In this document: positions 11,287 through 38,984 of the stretch, one piece after another
Numbering within the stretch: position 1 is the stretch's first letter
Layout of the letters: every line of letters starts with the position of its first letter
NCBI GenBank assembly: GCA_964445435.1
Contig: CAYUKU010000003.1
Span: 841 to 64,840 of the forward strand
DNA: 64,000 nt
Source: an uncultured Gammaproteobacteria bacterium
GTDB lineage: Bacteria; Patescibacteriota; Microgenomatia; UBA10105; UBA927
Direction: 5' to 3'
Notes under the pieces: generated by a model
The model's database searches: none
Told to the model about the DNA's origin: nothing
Seen by the model: the letters and a program-made list of their open reading frames with translations, nothing else
Program-made: the position numbers and the translations under genes

Positions 11287-12795
11287 TTATCCCAAGCTTT
11301 TCCGAAGCACCGCAGCCTGCACAAGCAGATCGCTCGTCAGATTGTTGCGGTCGAAACGGGTAACGATAAGGTCGACAAGTTCCTTATGCTCCAGTTCTTC
11401 ATTCGATTGAGGTGACAATTCAGCCCCCAGATATTCCTCTATGGCCGCCACATCTGCCTCAACTCCCGCAAGCTGTGCATGTGTGCGAGAGAGCTTCTTG
11501 AGTGATTTTCTGTTCAGAAACCTCCCTGCCCGCCGCATATCATCTTTGAGATTGATATACGTCTTCTCAAGAAGCGGCAGAATTCCTTTTTTCTTGGCTT
11601 CCTGAAGGCCTCTTCCGGTGCCAATGAGCTCCGGCGGAATTCCGAGTGAATACATCGCCCCGGTAAATCCGATCGCACGGGGAAGCGTCACTTTCCCCAC
11701 ACCACGGGAATATCCAAACAGTCCGACATGCTGCACGCGCTCCCGGCGCTTCGGCAACAAACTCGCCACATCGTTTATCACCGGCGCCAACTGTTCCACG
11801 GTCATGCGATAGGGCTCCTCAAAGGAGGTGAACACATCTCGAAGCGCCTCTTCCTGGTCTTGTCCTATCTGCTTCGCTGTCCCTCGAGGAAGAGAGGCGT
11901 GAAGTGTTTTGACTCCTTTCACCACATCGATGAACGGAAAATCATACCGAAACGCGCTTTGGATAAGTGCGGTTCTGACTCCTTGGTATTCGTTTGCGAA
12001 TTGTTCAACAGTTGCGGGCGTCAGGCCTCCGCGAAACGGAAGCGAAGCACTGCCAATAATGGGAAAAAGTTCAATCCCCGTTTGCTTGGTGAACTCACGG
12101 TACCGCGAAAGCGCAAGTTTGATCGCAACAACCGTGGGAACGATCCCGCTGTTGAGCGCCGGATCGCTTCGGGCGACGTACGGTCGTATATACTCAGGGA
12201 CAAAGCCAAAGGATTTTTCATGAAGCGATACGTACTCCCGAAGAATCTCATCAGACCGGGAAATCGTCTCAACGTTCTCGAAAAGCGGAATAATCTCGAT
12301 GTGCTTAATCGTATCGGTGGAGAAGTTATAAAGCGTATGTTTGAGAGACGCGATCTCCCGGAACGCTTCCTGAATCGCAATCATTTCCGAAGCAGTCTGT
12401 GTCATGGGAAGAATAACCTCAAAAAGCGGTGTGCTGTGAAGACCTACCTGCTTGGCGAGACTCGCCGCGGCCAAAATCCCCATGAATGCACGACCCAAAC
12501 GAAACTCTGTCTCTACCTTCGGATTGGGGAGCCGAAAGGTGATGAATTTCTCCTTCCCGAGCTGATGTTGGGCGAAGTAATCGAAATGTTCTCCCAACAG
12601 TTTCTCGACCACCGATTCATCTACGAATTTCCCTTCCCAGTCCCACTTGTATTCATCTATCCCAAGATCGCTGAACGTAAGAAAACACTCTTTCACTTCC
12701 TGCCTCGTGCTAACAAACTCCTTCGAGTGCCAATACGGTTTGCCCGCATGATCAGGGTGTTGCGAGGCCATTGTCGTGGGGATAATCCGCTTCAT
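11287..12795 (-). CDS. ppcA: Archaeal-type phosphoenolpyruvate carboxylase (PepcA)
   Basis: 502 aa. The N-terminus (IPTTMASQHPDHAGKPYW) and overall length match the roughly 500-aa archaeal-type PEPC family, not the roughly 900-aa bacterial Ppc. Confidence 0.7.
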   Translation of the reverse strand: MKRIIPTTMASQHPDHAGKPYWHSKEFVSTRQEVKECFLTFSDLGIDEYKWDWEGKFVDESVVEKLLGEHFDYFAQHQLGKEKFITFRLPNPKVETEFRLGRAFMGILAAASLAKQVGLHSTPLFEVILPMTQTASEMIAIQEAFREIASLKHTLYNFSTDTIKHIEIIPLFENVETISRSDEILREYVSLHEKSFGFVPEYIRPYVARSDPALNSGIVPTVVAIKLALSRYREFTKQTGIELFPIIGSASLPFRGGLTPATVEQFANEYQGVRTALIQSAFRYDFPFIDVVKGVKTLHASLPRGTAKQIGQDQEEALRDVFTSFEEPYRMTVEQLAPVINDVASLLPKRRERVQHVGLFGYSRGVGKVTLPRAIGFTGAMYSLGIPPELIGTGRGLQEAKKKGILPLLEKTYINLKDDMRRAGRFLNRKSLKKLSRTHAQLAGVEADVAAIEEYLGAELSPQSNEELEHKELVDLIVTRFDRNNLTSDLLVQAAVLRKSLG

Positions 12796-30255: not shown

Positions 30256-31347
30256 TCAAGATAGAGGCCCAATTGCAATGGCGCTCTGTTTAAGTTTTTC
30301 CCGTTGGAGCGACCACAAAATCCCAAATGCTATCGCAAGAGACAGAAGAGAGCTCCCCCCGTACGATACAAACGGAAGCGTAATGCCGGTTATGGGGATA
30401 ATGCCCATGTTCATGGCCGCGTTCACGAAAATCTGAACCACGAGCATCGCAAAAAGGCCAATCGAGTAAATAAACAGTCCCGGATCGCGCGCTTTACTGT
30501 CCACCAGGGGAGCAATAATACGGGTAAGCAGTGCGCCATAGAGAAATAAAAGCAGAATCCCTCCCACAAACCCCAATTCCTCGATAAGCGACGCGAAGAT
30601 GAAATCCGTATGATGCTCCGGCAGAAACCGCAGATGACTCTGGGTCCCCCTGCCAAGCCCGCGCCCGAAGAATTGGCCGCTTCCGACGGCGATCATGGCC
30701 TGGAGCGCATTATATCCGGCCCCCTTGGGGTCCAAGGCAGGATTAAGAAACGTGAGAATCCGATCTTTCTGATACGGCAGAAGTGCGTGCCACAACGCGG
30801 GGAAAGAGATGGCTCCCAGCCCGGCAACCGCAACGACAATGGCAACCGAGAGTCCGCCCGCAAGCATCATCGAAACCCAAAACGATCCGTAAATAATACT
30901 GCTTCCTAAATCGGGTTGCTTAAATACCAGCAAAAACGGGATGAGAAATAGAAGGACATGAAGCGGAATGTTTCTTAGATTCCTCGGACTGTATCTGGTC
31001 ATGAAATACGCAAACGCGAGGATGAAAAACGGCTTCGATAACTCGGAGGGTTGCAGTTGTACCCCTCCAATCATGATCCATCGTGTCGCTCCCCGGATGT
31101 TCGGGCCCAGATACGACAGAAGAAGAAATATATTCCCTATCACATATCCGTATGGGGCAAACCACCAAAACACCGCGTAATCCACCCGCGAGAAAAGATA
31201 CAGAAGAACCATCGCAAGCGCGAGAAACAATAACTGCTGCCAGAACGCTCCGACGCTGAGAGTAAGGAGTAAGAATAGTCCAAACGCGCAAAGGCACAAC
31301 AGAAGAAGAAGCGTTATCCAGTCGAAATGGTAAGCTCGTCTCCCCAT
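30256..31347 (-). CDS. rodA: SEDS-family peptidoglycan glycosyltransferase (RodA/FtsW-like)
   Basis: 363 aa with 10 TM helices and the SEDS C-terminal region (NMGIIPITGITLPFVSYGGSSLL). Confidence 0.75.
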   Translation of the reverse strand: MGRRAYHFDWITLLLLLCLCAFGLFLLLTLSVGAFWQQLLFLALAMVLLYLFSRVDYAVFWWFAPYGYVIGNIFLLLSYLGPNIRGATRWIMIGGVQLQPSELSKPFFILAFAYFMTRYSPRNLRNIPLHVLLFLIPFLLVFKQPDLGSSIIYGSFWVSMMLAGGLSVAIVVAVAGLGAISFPALWHALLPYQKDRILTFLNPALDPKGAGYNALQAMIAVGSGQFFGRGLGRGTQSHLRFLPEHHTDFIFASLIEELGFVGGILLLFLYGALLTRIIAPLVDSKARDPGLFIYSIGLFAMLVVQIFVNAAMNMGIIPITGITLPFVSYGGSSLLSLAIAFGILWSLQREKLKQSAIAIGPLS

Positions 31348-34139
31348 ACCACTGATTCTACCAAAGTCTTGGTTTGTATTACCGAGAGGAGCTCCTTGGG
31401 TAGGCTTTGGTACTTCCTGGGCAGAACAAGTGTAATTTTACGGTCAACCGGCAACCCCTGCTGTTTTCGCACTGCCTGGATCTCCCGCACAAGTTTTCGC
31501 GCGTCACCTTCCAGTTTAAGCTCTTCCGTCAGCTCGGTGGTGAGGGCAACCGTGATGTCTCCGGCGCCTTTCACAACAAGAATCTCCCGGATGTTTACTT
31601 CTTCCCGTACGACCTCAAGTATTTCTTCGGACACAGTGTCAGAAACGTTTGACACAACGGCTTTGGAGAGTGGCTGTCTGATGGGAATTCCTGAGGCCTT
31701 GCGTGCCGCGTGAATCTTCTCCACAACGCGTCGGGCCAGATCCATCTGTGACTCAAGGGCTCTGTCCTTCTTTGTTTTTCCTTCTTCCGGCCACATGGCG
31801 ACATGAACGGATCCTGCTGATGCGACCAAATTCTGGTATATGCGTTCGGTGACAAACGGCGCCACGGGCGCAAGGACGAGAACAAGCTGTTTTATCGCCC
31901 ACCCGAAGACGTGTTGTGCGGCTTTGTCCTCCCGCAAACGGTCACGGCTTCGCCTGAGGTACCAGGTCGAAAATTCCGAAATGTGCTGCTCAAGATATCT
32001 GCATGCCAAAACCGTATCATACGCATCAAACGCTTGCGTCACGGATGAGACGAGATGCGCGGTCTTACTTACCAACCAGCGATCAAGAACATGGACCGGC
32101 TTGAGCGGTTCATCTGATAAATCTCCTTCAGCATAGAGTTTGTAGAAACTGAAAATGTTCCACAGCGTCGAAACGATTTTCTGATACACTTCCTTCACCC
32201 CGTCTTCAGAGAAATTGAGATTCTCCGCTTTCATCACGACCGATCCCATGAGATAAAACCGAAGCGCATCCACGCCGTATTTCTCAAACAGAAGCGAAGG
32301 GTCAGGGTAGTTTTTCTTAGACTTGCTCATCTTGGAACCGTCTTCAGCCAGGATGGTTCCCGTGGTTACCGCGTTCTCGAAGGTGTGTTTGTCAAAGAGA
32401 CCGACGGACATAACGTGCAGGGTATAAAACCACGCACGAGTCTGGGCGATATACTCCGCGATGAATTGGGCCGGATGTGACTCCTCAAACAATTTCTTGT
32501 TCTCGAACGGATAATGGATGGAGGCATATGGCATGCTTCCTGATTCTATCCAGCAGTCGAATACCTCGGGGATACGCTTCCCCTTCACGGTCTTGTCATC
32601 ATCCACCCATACTTCCACATCATCCAGAAATTCGCGGTGAATATCCGTCAGATTTGCCACGCGTTTCGGATCGACGGCCCATTTCTTCAGCTCTTCAAGC
32701 GATCCCACGAGCCGCATCTTCCCGTCCCCTTTCCAGACCGGCATGGGCGTCCCCCAATAGCGGGATCGGGAGATATTCCAATCCGGCGCCGTCTCAAGGC
32801 CTTTTCCGAACCGTCCGTGTTTGAGATGGTCCGGATACCAGTTGATGTTCTCGTTTTGGGAGAGAAGCGTGGGCTTGAGCTTCTGGACATCGATAAACCA
32901 TGCGGGAACCGGCGCGTGATAGAGTCTCGTCTCGCAGCGGTAACAAACCGGCACACTGTGGATACGCTCTTCATCGCGATAGATAAGATTCCGCTTGGAT
33001 AAATCTTCGTTTACCAGGGGATTTACCTTCAGCATAAACATTCCCGCCCACGGCGTCACCTCAGGATTGAGTTTTCCCTCTTCATCCACGTGATATACCA
33101 GCTGCACGTTATGTTTCGTCATCACGCGGAAGTCGTCTTCTCCGTACACCGCAAGCGTAACGACTCCCGTCCCCTCTTCTGCCGTCACATAGGAATCGGC
33201 GATCACAACTCCTGCTTTCTCTCCATTTTTCCGGTCGGGGTAGAAGTCGTAATGCAGTTCGAAGGAGAACTGTTCGAGATCTTTTCCTTTGTATGTTTCA
33301 ACAATTTTATATGAGGGTTCTTTATTGAGAATCTCCAGCGTACTTTTGGCGAGAATGTAGAATTCATCGCCCTGTTTCACCTTCACATATTCAAGATCAG
33401 GGTTCACGGCGAGCGCAGGGGTCGCGAGCTTATTCCATGGCGTCGTAGACCAGGCCAGAAGGTACGTCGCATCCATATCTTTTAACTTATATTTATAGAC
33501 CGTGCTTGGACCGGGCATGTCCTTATAGCTGTTGTCCATCGCGATTTCGAAATTCGACAACGGAGTGGCACAGCGCGGGCAGTAGAGAATGACGCGCTTA
33601 CCCTCGTACACCAGTCCCTTTTCGTGGAGACGCTTGAACGCCCACCAGACGGATTCCATAAACGAGGTGTCCATGGTCTTGTAGGAATGTTTGAAATCCA
33701 CCCACCGGCCGATTCTTCGCACGACCTTCTCCCACTCTTTATCAAACCGCAGAATGGCAGCCCGGCAGGCCGCGTTAAACTTATCGATGCCGAGCGCCTC
33801 TATGCCCTTCTTTCCGCCTTTGAGCTCAAGCTCTTTTTCAATCATGTTTTCGATCGGGATCCCGTGGCAATCCCACCCCCATACGCGCTCGACTCTATAG
33901 CCCTTCATGGTCCAGTACCGGGGAATGACGTCCTTTATGGTCGAGGCGAGGATATGACCATAGTGAGGAAGGCCCGTGGCAAACGGCGGGCCGTCATAGA
34001 AAACATACCGCTTGTCTTCCGGGCGTGATGTGACGGACGTCTCAAACGCCTGGGTCTCGTCCCAATACTCCAAAACATCGTGCTCGCTTTTGGGAATATC
34101 GAGTTTTTCCTGAAAGTTCTTGATTTTTAAGTCCTGCAT
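31314..34139 (-). CDS. ileS: Isoleucyl-tRNA synthetase
   Basis: 941 aa with the HIGH motif (PHYGHILAS) and KMSKS (KMSKSKKN), preceded by a T-box leader. Confidence 0.9.
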   Translation of the reverse strand: MQDLKIKNFQEKLDIPKSEHDVLEYWDETQAFETSVTSRPEDKRYVFYDGPPFATGLPHYGHILASTIKDVIPRYWTMKGYRVERVWGWDCHGIPIENMIEKELELKGGKKGIEALGIDKFNAACRAAILRFDKEWEKVVRRIGRWVDFKHSYKTMDTSFMESVWWAFKRLHEKGLVYEGKRVILYCPRCATPLSNFEIAMDNSYKDMPGPSTVYKYKLKDMDATYLLAWSTTPWNKLATPALAVNPDLEYVKVKQGDEFYILAKSTLEILNKEPSYKIVETYKGKDLEQFSFELHYDFYPDRKNGEKAGVVIADSYVTAEEGTGVVTLAVYGEDDFRVMTKHNVQLVYHVDEEGKLNPEVTPWAGMFMLKVNPLVNEDLSKRNLIYRDEERIHSVPVCYRCETRLYHAPVPAWFIDVQKLKPTLLSQNENINWYPDHLKHGRFGKGLETAPDWNISRSRYWGTPMPVWKGDGKMRLVGSLEELKKWAVDPKRVANLTDIHREFLDDVEVWVDDDKTVKGKRIPEVFDCWIESGSMPYASIHYPFENKKLFEESHPAQFIAEYIAQTRAWFYTLHVMSVGLFDKHTFENAVTTGTILAEDGSKMSKSKKNYPDPSLLFEKYGVDALRFYLMGSVVMKAENLNFSEDGVKEVYQKIVSTLWNIFSFYKLYAEGDLSDEPLKPVHVLDRWLVSKTAHLVSSVTQAFDAYDTVLACRYLEQHISEFSTWYLRRSRDRLREDKAAQHVFGWAIKQLVLVLAPVAPFVTERIYQNLVASAGSVHVAMWPEEGKTKKDRALESQMDLARRVVEKIHAARKASGIPIRQPLSKAVVSNVSDTVSEEILEVVREEVNIREILVVKGAGDITVALTTELTEELKLEGDARKLVREIQAVRKQQGLPVDRKITLVLPRKYQSLPKELLSVIQTKTLVESVVWGDELTISTG

Positions 34140-34199
34140 ACTGTTAGTAATCCCTACGGAGATATGTGGCTTCTAAACTTGTGAATACGAATTCACTCG

Positions 34200-34440
34200 T
34201 TAAGCAGCCATCAAAAATCCGCTCTCCTTATACAATACCGTATATAAGGACGAGCGGCTACTCGTGGTACCACCTTATTCTCCATGAACCGCGCTTGCTC
34301 TGGTTCATGGCTCGATTCCTGCTGTAACGGGCTTACCCGGAAGGGTCTACTTGCCTTTCGGTGTTCTTCCTCCAGCTCGTCCGGTGATGTCGGACTTGGA
34401 CGCTGTTAAGTGAAGTATAACAAGATTGAAACGTTATCTC
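34200..34440 (-). promoter_or_regulatory. T-box riboswitch leader (Ile-specific) controlling ileS
   Basis: T-box sequence AATAAGGTGGTACCACGAG (minus strand, plus coordinates 34261-34279). An antiterminator can be drawn in which ACGAG pairs with CUCGU, AAGG pairs with CCUU, and a UGGUACC bulge is left free to pair the tRNA NCCA end. The 5' strand of the terminator is shared with this antiterminator. A stem III (CCATGAACC...GGTTCATGG) lies upstream, and a candidate specifier AUCA lies in the upstream region. Confidence 0.75.
34213..34257 (-). terminator. Intrinsic terminator of the ileS T-box leader
   Basis: The minus strand reads CCGCTCGTCCTTATATACGGTATTGTATAAGGAGAGCGG followed by ATTTTT, 74 nt upstream of the ileS ATG. 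Confidence 0.75.
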
Positions 34441-34597
34441 AACTCCTCTGTCTTAAAAACGCAGCGTCACCGCCTCCATATTTGTTTACGAAGGTAGGGG
34501 CTACCTTCTTCTGGTAGTAACGGATACCGTTTTTCTGAGATAGTGTATATCCTTCTCCGTTAAGACCGATGTGATGCTTTGAAGAATCGTATGCCAT
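34439..34597 (-). CDS. Small hypothetical protein (52 aa)
   Basis: Hand translation gives MAYDSSKHHIGLNGEGYTLSQKNGIRYYQKKVAPTFVNKYGGGDAAFLRQRS. Its ATG lies 1 nt after the stop of the upstream start-less ORF. It is below the ORF-track cutoff. Confidence 0.3.
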   Translation of the reverse strand: MAYDSSKHHIGLNGEGYTLSQKNGIRYYQKKVAPTFVNKYGGGDAAFLRQRS

Positions 34598-34598
34598 A

Positions 34599-34893
34599 TT
34601 AGACTTCAGTTAGTACGAACGCTCCGGTTCCGGAGTTAATAGTTACGTGGTATCTTTTCGTTCCATCTGAGGAATACATGTAGAACCCATCTGAGCCAAA
34701 CGAGCCTTCGAGATTCCTGATATTTACCTTTCGAGAACCCGTTCCCGTGTGCGCATGGAGACCGATCTTCTGAATTTCCGTAAACAGAGAAGGAGCAAGA
34801 TGTTGCAGCTCGATCTGACCAGGGCCGATTTGATCTCCTGTAACGGGAGCTTTGGCTGATGACTTAAAAGTTGAGTATCCTATATTCCCCCCC
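34599..34893 (-). pseudogene. Start-less open frame (about 97 codons) bordered by a G7 homopolymer; possible gene remnant
   Basis: Frame ...GGNIGYSTFKSSAKAPVTGDQIGPGQIELQHLAPSLFTEIQKIGLHAHTGTGSRKVNIRNLEGSFGSDGFYMYSSDGTKRYHVTINSGTGAFVLTEV*. There is no ATG/GTG/TTG before the internal Met, and adding one G to the tract does not create a long upstream frame. Confidence 0.25.
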
Positions 34894-34973
34894 TAAACAG
34901 CCTCAATTGAAGATGAGGGAGGATAGAAAGTGAATTAGATTATCGGGGATGTGGTATGATCCCTATCAAGTCT

Positions 34974-35132
34974 ATGAATAATAGCCCGTTGTGGGATTTG
35001 GCTATTTTGACCGTTATTATTGGATATATAGTATATAGATTCTTTTTTACGGATAACTTGCCTAATAGCTGTCGTCCTAACGATCAAGCATGTCTTGATT
35101 ATGTAGCTGAACAGGTAGATTATAGGAGATAA
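34974..35132 (+). CDS. Small single-TM membrane peptide (52 aa)
   Basis: MNNSPLWDLAILTVIIGYIVYRFFFTDNLPNSCRPNDQACLDYVAEQVDYRR. Its stop overlaps the AGGAG ribosome-binding site of the next plus-strand ORF. Confidence 0.3.
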   Translation: MNNSPLWDLAILTVIIGYIVYRFFFTDNLPNSCRPNDQACLDYVAEQVDYRR

Positions 35133-35134
35133 TT

Positions 35135-35410
35135 ATGCTCTGTATTGGAGGAGAGATAAGCGGTTTATGCGTAGAAGGTTTTCACCCGATTCTTGATTTT
35201 GGTTTTTTTGCCGCTCTTCTTATTCTTCTAGCAAGTCTTTTCACCTTGTTCATTCCAAATGAGAGTAGAATTCGGAGGATTTTAGCGAGCGTATTTGTTC
35301 TATACAGTCTTTTGATTGTTATCTTCAAACTATTCATTGTATCCCTACCAACCAAAGACATATTCTACTATCTCTTCAAAATTTTCTATCCCTTTTATCC
35401 ACTTAATTAG
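35135..35410 (+). CDS. Small two-TM membrane protein (91 aa)
   Basis: Strong RBS (AGGAGATAATT then ATG) and two hydrophobic helices (FFAALLILLASLFTLFI and LASVFVLYSLLIVIFKLFIV). It is convergent with the minus-strand small-gene operon. Confidence 0.45.
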   Translation: MLCIGGEISGLCVEGFHPILDFGFFAALLILLASLFTLFIPNESRIRRILASVFVLYSLLIVIFKLFIVSLPTKDIFYYLFKIFYPFYPLN

Positions 35411-35898
35411 GCGTAGAATCTCCCAGCAAAAGGCTTCGATAATTTATCAATTATGCCTTGAATAAAGGGGTCTATAAACTTCTGAATGACCCCCTGCCTT
35501 GGTGCAGGGGTAGGAGTGGTCTGTGGAGTTCCTACAGTAAAGCTGCCAACTCTAGTTCTTGTCGGAGCTGAGGATGCTGGAGATTGCGTAGGAACTGATG
35601 CTTTAATCGTTGTACCTATTGCTGGACCGGACGGTTTCGTTGCCCCTAGCACACTTCCGCCTGACGAAGCATTAGCTACCGAACGAGCTGATGGGACTGC
35701 TGGCGCAGATGGTCGTGATGGAGCAGCAGGACTTCCAGCGGGAGGAGGGGACAAACCAGTCGCTTTTGCTAACTCGGTACAAATTCCATTGGGAAGATAT
35801 CCATGATTCGGCTTTGCAGAAACCCGTAGCTGAGCCTCAATAAGAAGCGTTTTTGACAAACGAACATATGGTGCAGTTCTATTATATTTTCCTTTCAT
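35407..35898 (-). CDS. Pro/Ser/Ala/Thr-rich low-complexity protein (163 aa), last gene of the small-gene operon
   Basis: Structured N-terminal 50 aa (MKGKYNRTAPYVRLSKTLLIEAQLRVSAKPNHGYLPNGICTELAKATG), a PSAT-rich disordered core and a conserved-looking C-terminus (GVIQKFIDPFIQGIIDKLSKPF). Its start overlaps the end of the upstream zinc-ribbon ORF by about 17 nt. Confidence 0.5.
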   Translation of the reverse strand: MKGKYNRTAPYVRLSKTLLIEAQLRVSAKPNHGYLPNGICTELAKATGLSPPPAGSPAAPSRPSAPAVPSARSVANASSGGSVLGATKPSGPAIGTTIKASVPTQSPASSAPTRTRVGSFTVGTPQTTPTPAPRQGVIQKFIDPFIQGIIDKLSKPFAGRFYA

Positions 35899-36028
35899 AG
35901 CGTTTTTTTCTTTCTCGCAACCTTTCGCTACATTTTGGACATACGGTTACCTTTTCAGACCGGAATTCATCCGGACACAGCGTACATATTCTCCGTGTTG
36001 CTCGGTGATAACCAAAAGATTTAGACAT
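35882..36028 (-). CDS. Small zinc-ribbon protein 2 (48 aa, CxxC...CxxC)
   Basis: Hand translation gives MSKSFGYHRATRRICTLCPDEFRSEKVTVCPKCSERLRERKKRYERKI. Its ATG overlaps the stop of zinc-ribbon 1 (tATGTCTAA). Confidence 0.45.
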   Translation of the reverse strand: MSKSFGYHRATRRICTLCPDEFRSEKVTVCPKCSERLRERKKRYERKI

Positions 36029-36149
36029 ACCCGTTTTCTAAATAAAGCCTTAAACAAAAATGGCACACCCACAATCCTAACCATTCCCGGTTATGTTTCA
36101 GTTCAACTGGCGATACTTCATATCTGCACTCATTACAAACGTAGATCAT
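36021..36149 (-). CDS. Small zinc-ribbon protein 1 (42 aa, CxxC...CxxC)
   Basis: Hand translation gives MIYVCNECRYEVSPVELKHNREWLGLWVCHFCLRLYLENGYV. Its ATG overlaps the TGA of the upstream 61-aa ORF (ATGA). Confidence 0.45.
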   Translation of the reverse strand: MIYVCNECRYEVSPVELKHNREWLGLWVCHFCLRLYLENGYV

Positions 36150-36331
36150 ATGACTTCCCCTTCGTGTCTAGATTCTAAAGATGCGAATGCTCCATACAAG
36201 TCTTCTTCAATATCCTTCATACGGTGTTCGTGCTGTTTCGTGGTTATGAGATTTAACACCTTCATTCCTCCGGCAAGGCTTGACTGTAAAAATGCTATTC
36301 GTATTTTCAAAATCAACCATTTCTTATTCAT
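36146..36331 (-). CDS. Small helical hypothetical protein (61 aa)
   Basis: MNKKWLILKIRIAFLQSSLAGGMKVLNLITTKQHEHRMKDIEEDLYGAFASLESRHEGEVI. It is translationally coupled to zinc-ribbon 1. I prefer it to the antisense plus-strand ORF 36093..36353. Confidence 0.4.
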   Translation of the reverse strand: MNKKWLILKIRIAFLQSSLAGGMKVLNLITTKQHEHRMKDIEEDLYGAFASLESRHEGEVI

Positions 36332-36339
36332 AGTTTTCG

Positions 36340-36644
36340 TTAAAAATCTATAAATGCTTCTACTGGTTTCACTTCTCCGAGTCCTATCGCCCGCTCATAC
36401 AAAACCATAGGACGATCGGGAAACATAAACACCTTCTCCATCCGCTTTCCTTCCTTCTTCCATGCTTCCGGGCTGTAACCTCTTGAGCGTTCGGACATTC
36501 AACGATGAGCGTTTTCTTCTGCTTCATAGCGTCGTTTAAGATTCGTTCCTGAATAGCACACACCGTTCCGTAGATAGGCTTCTGAAACTTCATGTGCCAG
36601 AACTTACTTTCAACTGTTTGTACTTGTCCGTTATAGAGTTGCAT
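36340..36644 (-). pseudogene. Small gene split over two overlapping frames (MQLYNGQVQTVESKFWHMKFQKPIYGTVCAIQERILNDAMKQKKTLIVECPNAQ... / MSERSRGYSPEAWKKEGKRMEKVFMFPDRPMVLYERAIGLGEVKPVEAFIDF)
   Basis: Frame 1 (36384..36644) is protein-like up to about VECPNAQ and then looks like junk. Frame 2 (36340..36498) has its own ATG and a protein-like C-terminus. They overlap by about 95 nt over a purine-rich run (ggaagaaggaaggaaagcggatggagaagg). Confidence 0.3.
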
Positions 36645-37180
36645 ATGTTTCTCTTACGTCCCCCTCCCCCACAGCATTCTGCAGCCTTTTAGCTATTCCC
36701 CTTGTTTGCAGAGCCGTTTCCTAGAGATGAACCTTGCCCCACCTAAGTTCGGTCAGGTCAGTGCGTATCTCTGAGGTGTCCGTGTTCTGTTTTCAAGTCC
36801 GGCTAGTCCGTTTTTATTCGCAAACATTTAGGTAAACGGCGGCTACCGTGTCTGCTACCCATTCTTGTTTCCGTCACCCATGTGGAAGGGGTGTGGGTAA
36901 CGGAAATAAGCCTTCCACAGCTATTCCAAGAATGCTTTCAATGCAATTGCAAACCCCCTTCGACTCGTATATTCGGCGTCGTTGCAGACGGTAATTTTTG
37001 TTTTCTTTTTATTTCCGGCGAACCATGAACCGTAAGAGACTCGAAGATATACAGAAGGGTGTTTCTCCCATTTAATCGTGCGTACGTGGTTGAGAAATCG
37101 GCGAATGGACCCCGTTTCACATCTCTCACCTTTTACTACGACTGTATAGTTCGTTTCATAGTCGCTAATCCAACTATTTG

Positions 37181-37553
37181 TTATGATCTTGCGGTCAGTG
37201 GTGTTGGCTTTTCACCACCAACCGTCAGAGCATACCTGAAACTCCTAACTGCCTTTTGGAGGCTTGTAGGTACACCAACCTTGACTGGGTGGCAATCTTT
37301 GGTCCGGCAGAACCATCCCCACTGGCCCTTCGTAAGAGGTTTATTGTGCTTTGGGCACATGGGGACCTCTGCTTGCACATCGTATTCAGTGTGGGCAGTA
37401 TTTCCTTCATCATCGGGGAAAGCACTTTTCTGTGGGAGTTTTGCTTTATATTTTTCTATAAGCGGAGCGAACTCCTCCTCGTTATCGGTTCGGATAACAA
37501 TCTGCTCTGAGCGATCTGGACATTTTGGACCACTGAAATTTCTTATCTTCCAT
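37181..37553 (-). pseudogene. Cys-rich small ORF (about 124 aa) whose RBS and ATG are one frame off from the long open frame
   Basis: A strong RBS (AAGGAGGAACATG) starts MEDKKFQWSKMSRSLRADCYPNR*. The neighbouring frame is open for about 120 codons (...PKCPDRSEQIVIRTDNEEEFAPLIEKYKAKLPQKSAFPDDEGNTAHTEYDVQAEVPMCPKHNKPLTKGQWGWFCRTKDCHPVKV...) but has no start. The two frames would join at an A-run (TCCAAAATGTCC). Confidence 0.3.
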
Positions 37554-37740
37554 GTTCCTCCTTTGGATAGATGTACCCGTATTTATGGGCATCACGTTTT
37601 ATGACTCGGAAGACATTGGGCTGGAGAACTCGTTTGTGATATCGCTTGCGGAAGACGTCGGGGATAGCGTACGTTGAGAAATCATCCTCAAAATACAGCT
37701 TGCAGATTATTCTGTTGTAGTCTATTTTTGCTTTAGACAT
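37543..37740 (-). CDS. Small basic hypothetical protein (65 aa), first gene after the ftsZ terminator
   Basis: MSKAKIDYNRIICKLYFEDDFSTYAIPDVFRKRYHKRVLQPNVFRVIKRDAHKYGYIYPKEEHGR. There is no obvious Shine-Dalgarno sequence. Confidence 0.4.
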   Translation of the reverse strand: MSKAKIDYNRIICKLYFEDDFSTYAIPDVFRKRYHKRVLQPNVFRVIKRDAHKYGYIYPKEEHGR

Positions 37741-37770
37741 AGGTTTGGCGTATAATAACGCTCTAAACTA

Positions 37771-37791
37771 AAAAACCTGACCTGCGTCAGG
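37771..37791 (-). terminator. Rho-independent terminator downstream of ftsZ
   Basis: The minus strand reads CCTGACGCAGGTCAGG followed by TTTTT, 24 nt after the ftsZ stop. Confidence 0.65.
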
Positions 37792-37814
37792 CCTAGTATC
37801 AACCTACGTCTCTC

Positions 37815-38984
37815 TTAACTTCTCTGTCTTAGGAATGCGGGGATATCGAATTCGTCTTCCTCAGGAGGAAGCTCGTCATCAGGAACGGGAGGCGTATAAA
37901 CCGGGGTTGGCGCGGGACGCGGGGTAGCAGCTTGCTGGACCGGTTGTGCTTGAGCTGCATATGGCTGCGGCGCAGGAGCGGGCGTTGCCCCAAACGCGGG
38001 GCGGCCGGTAATTTCCCTCAGCCTTCGTTTCGTTTCATCAAATCCAGTTGCTATGACTGTAATCTTCACCTGATCCACCAGGTGCTCATCGATGGTTGCC
38101 CCGAAAATGATGTTTGCATCCGGATCCACGGCCGAGGCGATTTGTTTGGCCGCCTCATCGACTTCTGCCATCGTAAGATCCGACCCCCCGGTAATGTTAA
38201 ACAGCACTCCTTTGGCTCCCTCAATGGACACTTCCAGAAGCGGCGAGGCAATCGCGGTACGCGCTGCTGTTGCGGCCCTGTTCTCCCCAACCCCCGTGCC
38301 GATGCCCATGAGCGATGATCCTGCGTTCGTCATGATGGTGCGAACGTCAGCAAAATCGACATTGATAAGTCCGGGCATGGTGATAAGGTCAGCTATTCCC
38401 TGAACACCCTGACCTAACACGGAATCCGTGACGCGAAACGCTTCCAGAAGCGTCATTTTCTTGTCGATAACCTCCAAAAGCCGCTGATTGGGTATGACGA
38501 TAAGTGTATCCACTTTATCTTTCAGATTAGAAATGCCCTCTTCTGCTGCAAGCATCCTTCTGGTTCCCTCAAAATGAAACGGTTTGGTGACGACGGCCAC
38601 AGTAAGGGCTCCCATTTCCTTGGCGACTTGGGCGACGACGGGAGTGGCACCCGTCCCCGTGCCGCCTCCCTCCCCGCAGGTGAGGAAGATCATGTCGGTA
38701 TCCCGAAGATAGTCCTTAATTTTGTCTTTCGATTCTTCTGCAGCTTCTTTGCCGATTTCCGGCTTGCCACCCGCACCCAATCCGCGGGTCACCATATCTC
38801 CTATTTGGATTTTCGTAGGTGCCTGGCAGGTGAGAAGCGCCTGGGCGTCGGTATTTACGCCAATGAAATCGACTCCCGCGATCTGATTGACGGAAATCAT
38901 TGAGTTAATGGCATTGCAGCCGCCGCCGCCGATGCCGATGACCTTAATTTTGGCGAAACGGGCTATATCTGGTTTGATAAGCAT
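37815..38984 (-). CDS. ftsZ: Cell division GTPase FtsZ
   Basis: Tubulin signature GGGTGTG within [17 protein letters not shown], plus a disordered, Pro-rich C-terminal tail. Confidence 0.95.

Follow-up and report, generated by a model that had tools for sequence, protein, structure and literature searches.

Phages and genomic islands use the 3' ends of tRNA and tmRNA genes as integration sites, and tandem arrays of islands are among the arrangements found there. Protein-coding genes can serve as well: the cryptic lambdoid elements e14 and phage 21 are integrated in the 3' end of icd in Escherichia coli. Cryptic prophages have also been connected with cell division, through DicB of Qin and Kil of Rac, inhibitor proteins that act on FtsZ. 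Here, we describe a locus that combines features of these systems. It is located in a stretch of 64,000 nt of contig CAYUKU010000003.1 (hereafter "the window", always the whole stretch) and consists of an island of small open reading frames (ORFs) at approximately 34,463-37,812, flanked by ileS and ftsZ. We propose, with a probability of about 0.9, that this island is a defective, immobile 3.4-kb remnant of a temperate tailed phage of Microgenomates (Candidate Phyla Radiation, CPR), which entered the 3' end of ftsZ by means of a tyrosine integrase.

The proposed element resembles e14 and phage 21 in the use of a tyrosine integrase, in the choice of the 3' end of an essential conserved gene, in the surrogate end that keeps the gene intact, in the displaced copy at the far junction, and in its capacity to decay. 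It differs from them in its target, the region encoding the C-terminal peptide of FtsZ, in its CPR host (Gottesmanbacteria), in a surrogate of only 8-10 codons plus a terminator, and in the loss of the integrase. With the tRNA and tmRNA islands it shares a short, highly conserved bacterial attachment site (attB), the restoration of the gene end, and the existence of arrays with displaced gene ends (in the related contigs L003 and L096/L097). However, the ftsZ-tail repeat is protein-coding, and selection on it is seen as purely synonymous differences between the copies. Like Qin and Rac, it is a cryptic prophage tied to the cell-division machinery, but what ties it is its attachment site, and an inhibitor homologue was not detected. 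Our literature search found no description of ftsZ as an integration site or of Gottesmanbacteria prophages. The element is of an ordinary kind that departs from the known cases in its target, the tail of ftsZ, and in its host group, CPR Microgenomates, and the site appears to be undescribed.

In the window, ileS (31314-34139) and ftsZ (37815-38984) are both encoded on the minus strand. No other part of the window runs as long without an ORF of at least 200 aa as the region between them, 34140-37814 (3675 nt); the longest minus-strand ORF there has 163 aa, and the GC content of the island stretch is 0.44, compared to 0.49 for the whole window. FtsZ is of full length, has kept its conserved tail, and is 78-80% identical to the FtsZ proteins of four Gottesmanbacteria metagenome-assembled genomes (MAGs). 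A contig from an independent assembly (L102, Logan, 4478 nt) is 100% identical to 33604-38081, including the whole island and both of its junctions.

The first-pass annotation, which had been made by inspection of this sequence alone, overlooked that the ftsZ tail is repeated in direct orientation at the two ends of the island. Of the direct repeats in 34000-38100, the best is the pair 34437-34462 and 37813-37838, which brackets the island exactly. Both copies encode AFLRQRS followed by a stop codon; the proximal copy is the end of ftsZ and the distal copy is the end of a short ORF, J52 (GGGDAAFLRQRS, stop). Across the seven shared codons there are five differences, and all of them (5/5) are synonymous. 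The elements of the two junctions are as follows:

37813..37847, minus strand: left attachment site (attL), composed of the last ftsZ codons, the stop codon and a few bases beyond, with the 3' part supplied by the phage; includes one copy of the direct repeat (D1, 37813-37838)
34437..34462, minus strand: right attachment site (attR), the displaced ancestral ftsZ tail of the host; the other copy of repeat D1
37773..37794, minus strand: Rho-independent terminator (hairpin and T-run) identified by a terminator scan, phage-derived and now ending ftsZ

The origin of these elements is indicated by two contigs with phage genes, L083 (Logan SRR28913357_58026, 26.8 kb) and L093 (JGI Ga0604594_0000303). 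In both of them a phage attachment site (attP) lies between the integrase gene and a homologue of A65, the ORF of the island that is closest to ftsZ, and in both it consists of an FtsZ tail and the same terminator as that found at the ftsZ end in the window. The attP of L083 reads GAG TTA GAC ATC CCC GCA TTC TTG CGG CAA GGC CGC AGA TAG, i.e. an FtsZ C-terminal tail with a stop codon, and is followed by the hairpin. The attP of L093 reads CCC GCG TTT TTG AGA CAG CGG TCA TAG, which encodes PAFLRQRS and a stop, the exact Gottesmanbacteria tail, and is followed by a hairpin and leader (TTTTTTAGTTTAAGGCGTCATTATAATCTAAACCTATG) nearly identical to window positions 37741-37775, which extend from the ftsZ terminator to the start codon of A65. 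The hairpin and T-run at 37764-37792 are identical to L083 9604-9632 in 26 of 29 nt. Because the attP tails of L083 and L093 carry a matching hairpin, we regard the terminator as a part of the phage attP arm. The "clean" ftsZ terminator, originally taken for the host boundary of the island, therefore belongs to the inserted element. An exact-pattern scan of IMG/VR for the att sequence of the window gave no match.

The second line of evidence comes from a sister strain represented by contigs L100 and L101, whose FtsZ falls into the same 90% cluster as that of the window. These contigs match the window at 96% identity as far as position 37813 and at 98.7% from 34353 into ileS, with no island sequence in between. 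The site is not bare in the sister strain, as it contains an unrelated ORF of 234 aa (L100 11193-11897, no Pfam family). The native ftsZ tail of the sister strain, GCG TTT CTA CGG CAG AGG AGT TGA GAT, matches the distal copy of the repeat in 24 of 27 positions (15/15 in the 3' half) and the present ftsZ tail of the window in only 20 of 27. Since the native tail agrees better with the distal copy, we infer that the distal copy is the ancestral host tail, while the present tail of ftsZ has been imported. The distal copy, attR, also resembles the native ftsZ tails of L001 and L009. Between the attL tail and the native tail of the sister strain 9 of 32 positions differ, all of them synonymously, and in the window phage-type sequence then follows; the 79 nt with which the aligned stretch begins, located approximately 85 nt farther upstream, are identical. 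The island is thus polymorphic in its presence: it is missing from the L100/L101 strain with its 96-99% identical flanks, and its ORFs are missing from all 80 ftsZ-anchored relatives (80/80).

The third line of evidence is the gene content of the island, listed here in the direction from ftsZ to ileS:

37543..37740, minus strand: A65, intact basic protein of 65 aa, the first phage gene after attL
37245..37553, minus strand: B, pseudogene of a Cys/His phage early protein of approximately 105 aa, with two frameshifts
36921..37211, minus strand: C96, frame homologous to a phage protein of 77-81 aa, without an ATG, GTG or TTG start
36645..36920, minus strand: ORF-free stretch with a 13-bp inverted repeat (approximately 36860-36905) and a 22-nt block (36834-36855) conserved with L083
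36340..36644, minus strand: E, pseudogene of a phage early protein of approximately 100 aa, with one frameshift near 36475
36146..36331, minus strand: F61, intact ORF of 61 aa
36021..36149, minus strand: G42, peptide of 42 aa with a CxxC...CxxC pattern
35882..36028, minus strand: H48, peptide of 48 aa with a CxxC...CxxC pattern
35407..35898, minus strand: I163, P/S/A/T-rich ORF of 163 aa, positional counterpart of a P/S-rich phage protein of 226-243 aa
35135..35410, plus strand: M91, small membrane ORF, counterpart in position and size of opposite-strand ORFs of 87-100 aa in L081, L082 and L083
34956..35132, plus strand: M58, small membrane ORF, positional counterpart of ORFs of 46-51 aa in L081 and L083
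34599..34883, minus strand: K97, homologue of a phage structural-module protein of 91-96 aa, with the start codon changed from ATG to ATA (34881-34883)
34439..34597, minus strand: J52, chimera of the first approximately 47 codons of a large LamG-domain phage protein and the displaced ftsZ tail (AFLRQRS and stop), in frame

A65, B, C96, E, K97 and J52 are homologous to genes of L083, L093, and two viral contigs from IMG/VR (L081 and L082, uncultivated viral genomes, UViGs, of approximately 44 kb each), and they occur in the phage order; I163, M91 and M58 are positional counterparts of phage genes. The relatives carry genes for LamG tail-fibre-like proteins, amidases, HNH proteins and integrases, and the integrases of L093 and L083 are 52% identical to each other. 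In L083, the P/S-rich protein is followed by two membrane ORFs on the opposite strand, the homologue of K97, a LamG protein of 1122 aa, an endolysin of the Amidase_3 family, an integrase (PF00589) on the opposite strand, and attP. Beyond it there are a gene-free region of 300 nt, a gene for a Sigma70_r4-like helix-turn-helix (HTH) protein of 73 aa, a gene of 46 aa, the homologue of B (P0001), a gene-free stretch, and the homologue of E. The structural block, from the P/S-rich protein through the large protein, is shared by L081 and L082; in each of the three contigs a P/S-rich protein of 226-243 aa is followed by one or two opposite-strand membrane ORFs (two in L081 and L083). The arrangement I163, M91/M58, K97, J52 in the window is therefore the phage arrangement. 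As the protein identities range only from 29 to 74%, the ancestor of the island must have been a mosaic relative of these phages rather than any one of them. The relatives are contigs of 27-45 kb with integrase, lysis and structural genes, of which the window has kept only approximately 3.4 kb.

A65 is 71% identical to the 63-aa gene adjacent to attP in L093 and 29% identical to the 73-aa gene of L083; the latter matches Sigma70_r4 with an E-value of 7e-7, and by this similarity A65 is probably an HTH regulator. Toward the other end of the island, K97 is 62-68% identical to proteins of L081, L082 and L083 (68% in L083), all three of which have an ATG at the position where K97 has lost its start codon. 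J52 is 60-74% identical to the N-termini of the proteins of 1007-1122 aa encoded directly after the K97 homologue in the same three contigs (74% over 47 aa in L083, where the protein possesses a Laminin_G_3 domain). B is 65-67% identical to its homologues P0001 and P0002, and its N-terminus, body and C-terminus are found in three different frames. The interpretation of its N-terminus as a "CPKCP" zinc ribbon has been rejected, as the homologues read KFQWSKFSPDRSEQ and place the frameshift elsewhere. C96 is 53% identical to L093 3839-4057 and 39% identical to L083 12017-12193, and E is 47-49% identical to the 105-aa gene of L083, to which it aligns as two pieces in different frames. I163 can be called a homologue only by position, because hhalign gives a probability of only 22% against the phage P/S-rich proteins and the only sequence match, 47% identity of its center to the L082 protein (E-value 0.001), is composition-rich. 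It is probably a truncated or chimeric derivative of the phage protein; since its N-terminal approximately 50 residues do not match that protein, it may be a deletion chimera. M91 shows no significant sequence match to its counterparts, and M58 a single weak piece in tblastx.

The description of the island in the first-pass annotation holds in most of its details. The overlapping stop and start signals are evident (ATGA at 36146-36149; H48 overlaps both G42 and I163), as are the Cys-pair peptides (G42, H48 and B), the P/S/A/T-rich ORF of 163 aa, the basic ORF of 65 aa, the two plus-strand membrane peptides, and the ORF-free stretch of approximately 280 nt. The two ORFs thought to be broken by frame changes are confirmed by their homologues as B, with two frameshifts, and E, with one. 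A frame without a start codon does lie next to the G7 tract, although it is not the only one, as C96 likewise lacks a start. The statement that no ORF exceeds approximately 160 codons is correct for the minus strand (maximum 163 aa), but an ORF of 181 aa with a GTG start is present on the plus strand (37059-37604) and was judged spurious. This longest ORF of the island runs antisense to both B and A65 and lacks homologues in the compared loci; it probably arises from the composition of the sense strand.

Within the ORF-free stretch, the 22-nt block (GCAGACACGGTAGCCGCCGTTT) is identical in 21 of 22 positions to L083 10773-10794, where genes are likewise absent. Immediately 5' of the block on the minus strand, two perfect inverted copies of 13 bp (UUCCGUUACCCAC / GUGGGUGACGGAA) make up a strong local hairpin. 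The block and the repeat could constitute a regulatory or origin element of the phage. A structured RNA in this stretch was considered and is not supported (fold z = -1.34, no Rfam match).

The profile searches proposed in the first-pass annotation (Pfam, PHROGs) assign no island ORF to a family with significance: none scored above the cut-off in Pfam, none matched PHROGs below an E-value of 0.03, and PADLOC returned zero matches, so that no component of a known toxin, antitoxin or defense family was found in these three collections. The island had no blastn match among 50,697 deposited phage genomes, and exact look-up of the window FtsZ and of F61 in the contig index returned no record.

The comparison with intact relatives reveals the extent of decay. 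The island has accumulated three frameshifts (two in B, one in E), two lost start codons (K97 and C96) and a truncated J gene, and approximately 35-40 kb are missing. Missing are all genes that separate the early genes from the P/S-rich gene, and all sequence from codon ~47 of J to attR, including the lysis genes and the integrase. At the junction in J52 the sequence reads GAC GCT GCG TTT followed by TTA AGA; the phage J protein reads GGGD-[VS]-[AS]-Y, and the att copy ..CC(C/G) GC(A/G) TT(C/T). We suppose that one deletion, near 35,900, would have removed the replication, packaging, head and tail genes, and another, from codon ~47 of the LamG gene to the left edge of attR, the remainder of the LamG gene together with the lysis cassette and integrase. 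The second junction falls into a GCGT(A/T)T microhomology, and this deletion was presumably microhomology-mediated and in frame by chance.

These observations suggest the following history. The phage tyrosine integrase would have recombined attP with the conserved codons of the FtsZ C-terminal peptide, with a crossover predicted in or near ATCCCCGCATTC...TAAGACAG. The surrogate tail in attP (PAFLRQRS and stop) and the phage's own terminator would have kept ftsZ functional and insulated: since attP carries both the surrogate codons and the terminator, the FtsZ protein would remain unchanged and ftsZ transcription would end at the phage hairpin. The original tail of the host would have been pushed 3.4 kb downstream to become attR, with the promoter-like site and the T-box leader of ileS staying joined to it and the old stop codon overlapping the promoter-like site. 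Later deletions and point mutations would then have left the present remnant, which is presumably immobile and mostly non-functional.

The ftsZ 3' end is apparently used in this way by a larger group of elements. Among 69 homologues of the L083 integrase (E-value <= 1e-30), members of the family are encoded 130-560 nt from the ftsZ stop codon in L002 (a Gottesmanbacteria MAG), L095, L096/L097 (Levybacteria) and L099 (Curtissbacteria), and the arrangement of L096/L097 is seen on at least 24 contigs; two other members, L094 and L098, are not located beside ftsZ. Downstream of ftsZ, displaced in-frame FtsZ tails are present in L003 (two), L007, L021 and L096/L097 (three), with the peptide and the stop codon kept in every copy, and the distance from ftsZ to ileS in relatives varies from approximately 50 nt to 6.8 kb, with unrelated cargo in between. 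The location of the island, initially described as unusual, is therefore no oddity but a hotspot created by the attachment site, which recurs in Microgenomates.

Several further observations concern these elements. In L096/L097 the displaced tails lie at +4510, +5811 and +7281 from the ftsZ stop, and in L003 the two extra copies end near 12,530 and 14,650; each island of the arrays ends in a displaced tail, PAFLRQKN* or IPAFLRQRN*, and the two L003 copies share the upstream motif 'IPVL'. Among the cargo genes of the arrays are def, a Fic/MazE pair and a gene resembling HTH_3 repressors. Where an integrase gene adjoins ftsZ (L002 11177-11200, L095, L096), the motif TAGCTTCA(A/G)A(T/A)TTCC.C directly follows the ftsZ stop codon; this sub-family of elements may have it in common as an arm or as a binding site of the integrase. 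The integrase homologues away from ftsZ adjoin a Peptidase_S24/SRAP pair (L098 10541-12456 and 8530-9858; L094 7025-8365), in L098 also near a Thoeris-like ThsA/ThsB cluster, and the Peptidase_S24/SRAP locus may be a second attachment site of this integrase family, with defense cargo. Furthermore, the ileS genes that follow ftsZ are of two types, approximately 28-30% and 47-66% identical to the window IleS (compared groups: L001, L005, L010, L014, L016, L017, L022 versus L003, L004, L009, L012, L015, L026), and the presence of both types in close relatives suggests xenologous replacement at a conserved position.

Several points weigh against a phage remnant. As nucleotides alone the repeat is modest (23/36 ungapped matches, compared to 19.6 +/- 0.9, maximum 23, in 300 shuffles), so that the case rests on the comparisons with the phages and the sister strain. 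No integrase, replication, packaging or lysis gene is found in the island or elsewhere in the window; with no hallmark phage genes in place, the phage origin likewise rests on comparison, and while the loss of the integrase fits a remnant, the island cannot be called a prophage capable of excision. F61, G42 and H48 lack convincing homologues: an exhaustive HMMER search of 1.84 billion representatives with F61 returned only F61 itself, no homologue of G42 was found, and H48 gave no match in a word-index search and a weak one to an ORF of 67 aa adjoining NinG in the phage-like contigs L084, L085 and L087 (38% over 34 aa, E-value 0.002-0.004 against a small database). For I163, M58 and M91, homology is mostly a matter of position. 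The second deletion preserves the reading frame and stops within a few bases of where the att homology has its left edge, which the deletion model has to treat as a coincidence of microhomology. The frameshifts could be errors common to both assemblies, if these were built from the same reads. Finally, no lysogen carrying an intact relative of this particular phage has been found beside ftsZ; searches of metagenome and viral contigs with an alignment of the B homologues retrieved further phage-like contigs, in none of which the match lies beside ftsZ or an integrase.

One reading goes further than ours in that it takes the ftsZ tail to be a dedicated attachment site of one clade of Microgenomates phages and islands and, in addition, the tail supplied by the phage to be functional. 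Lysogeny would then rewrite the C-terminus of FtsZ and tune the divisome, and J52 would be expressed and act as a decoy for partners of the FtsZ tail such as FtsA; lysogeny by L083, for instance, would install ...LRQGRR in place of ...LRQRS/QKN at the end of FtsZ. The recurrent use of the site is essentially established by the data above, while the functional part is conjectural throughout, and we consider the reading as a whole unlikely. The main rival to the remnant is a 3.4-kb mini integrative element, satellite-like and still mobilizable in trans by the integrase of a helper phage, with its small proteins, among them the HTH protein A65, the zinc ribbons and the membrane peptides, as functional cargo. 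It would account for the retention of both att copies, for the strain-variable presence of the island, for the intact state of A65, F61, G42, H48, I163, M58 and M91, and for the position of the J52 junction, which lies at the left edge of the att homology as expected of the element's own attP arm. However, disabling lesions or truncations are visible in 5 of approximately 13 ORFs, the genes form a collinear part of a 38-44-kb phage with no distinct architecture, and no second copy of the unit was found in the phage, viral, metagenome or genome collections searched, all of which makes this explanation quite improbable.

We give very little credence to an operon of lineage-specific small proteins evolved in the host between ftsZ and ileS, whether regulatory or toxin-antitoxin-like. 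The tight packing with overlapping stop and start signals and the lack of family assignments in Pfam, PHROGs and PADLOC would agree with it, but the island is absent from the 96-99% identical sister strain and the 80 ftsZ-anchored relatives, it is flanked by att-type repeats, several of its members are pseudogenes, and the homologues of A65, B, C96, E, K97 and J52 stand in the same order in phages. The toxin-antitoxin module, regulatory module and lineage-specific system offered as candidates in the first-pass annotation thus find no support, most of the ORFs being homologues of phage genes, and it is its other suggestion, a decaying mobile element or prophage remnant, that phage homology, synteny, the att repeats and the island-free sister strain strongly favor. 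An assembly artefact that joined phage reads to the host contig via the ftsZ tail is equally hard to accept, for although the source is a MAG and phage attP and host ftsZ have 10-15 identical bases in common, such exact runs are shorter than the usual assembly k-mers, the Logan assembly reproduces the island and both junctions with zero mismatches, the insert is a deleted and mutated derivative rather than a phage genome, and the distal copy matches the native tail of the sister strain.

Outside the remnant, the region upstream of ileS belongs to the host:

34243..34442, minus strand: host context, comprising the T-box leader of ileS (34243-34409) and a promoter-like site (34414-34442) that overlaps the former stop codon of ftsZ

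The promoter-like site agrees with the consensus in 10 of 12 positions and has a TG, but the number of such sites in the region equals that expected by chance, and it should be regarded as a consensus match only. The riboswitch claimed for ileS was recovered as a match to RF00230 (43.7 bits, E-value 1.5e-7) that does not reach the Rfam gathering score (93) on account of a very short Stem I, in which 75 positions of the model are replaced by 6 nt. Stem I (GUCCG-ACAUCAC-CGGAC) presents the Ile codon AUC in its loop, and both the T-box sequence (GGUGGUACCACG) and the terminator hairpin are visible; judging by these elements, the leader works like a T-box of an atypical short form, and it resembles the short-Stem-I ileS T-boxes of Actinobacteria. 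In the sister strain (L100 11900-12060) the 5' half of this leader has diverged and is approximately 30 nt longer than in the window, despite the flanks being 96-99% identical.

In practical terms, the ORFs of the island should be annotated as prophage-remnant genes and pseudogenes rather than as a new small-protein system. Beyond this, the remnant is a record of tailed phages having lysogenized Gottesmanbacteria and other Microgenomates, a group in which links between phages and hosts have been mostly speculative, and the FtsZ tail in attP provides a sequence-based host assignment for uncultivated phage contigs such as L083 and L093. The hypervariable junction between ftsZ and ileS, beside the dcw cluster, is explained by arrays of islands with displaced ftsZ tails, and an essential cell-division gene joins the list of protein-coding attachment sites.

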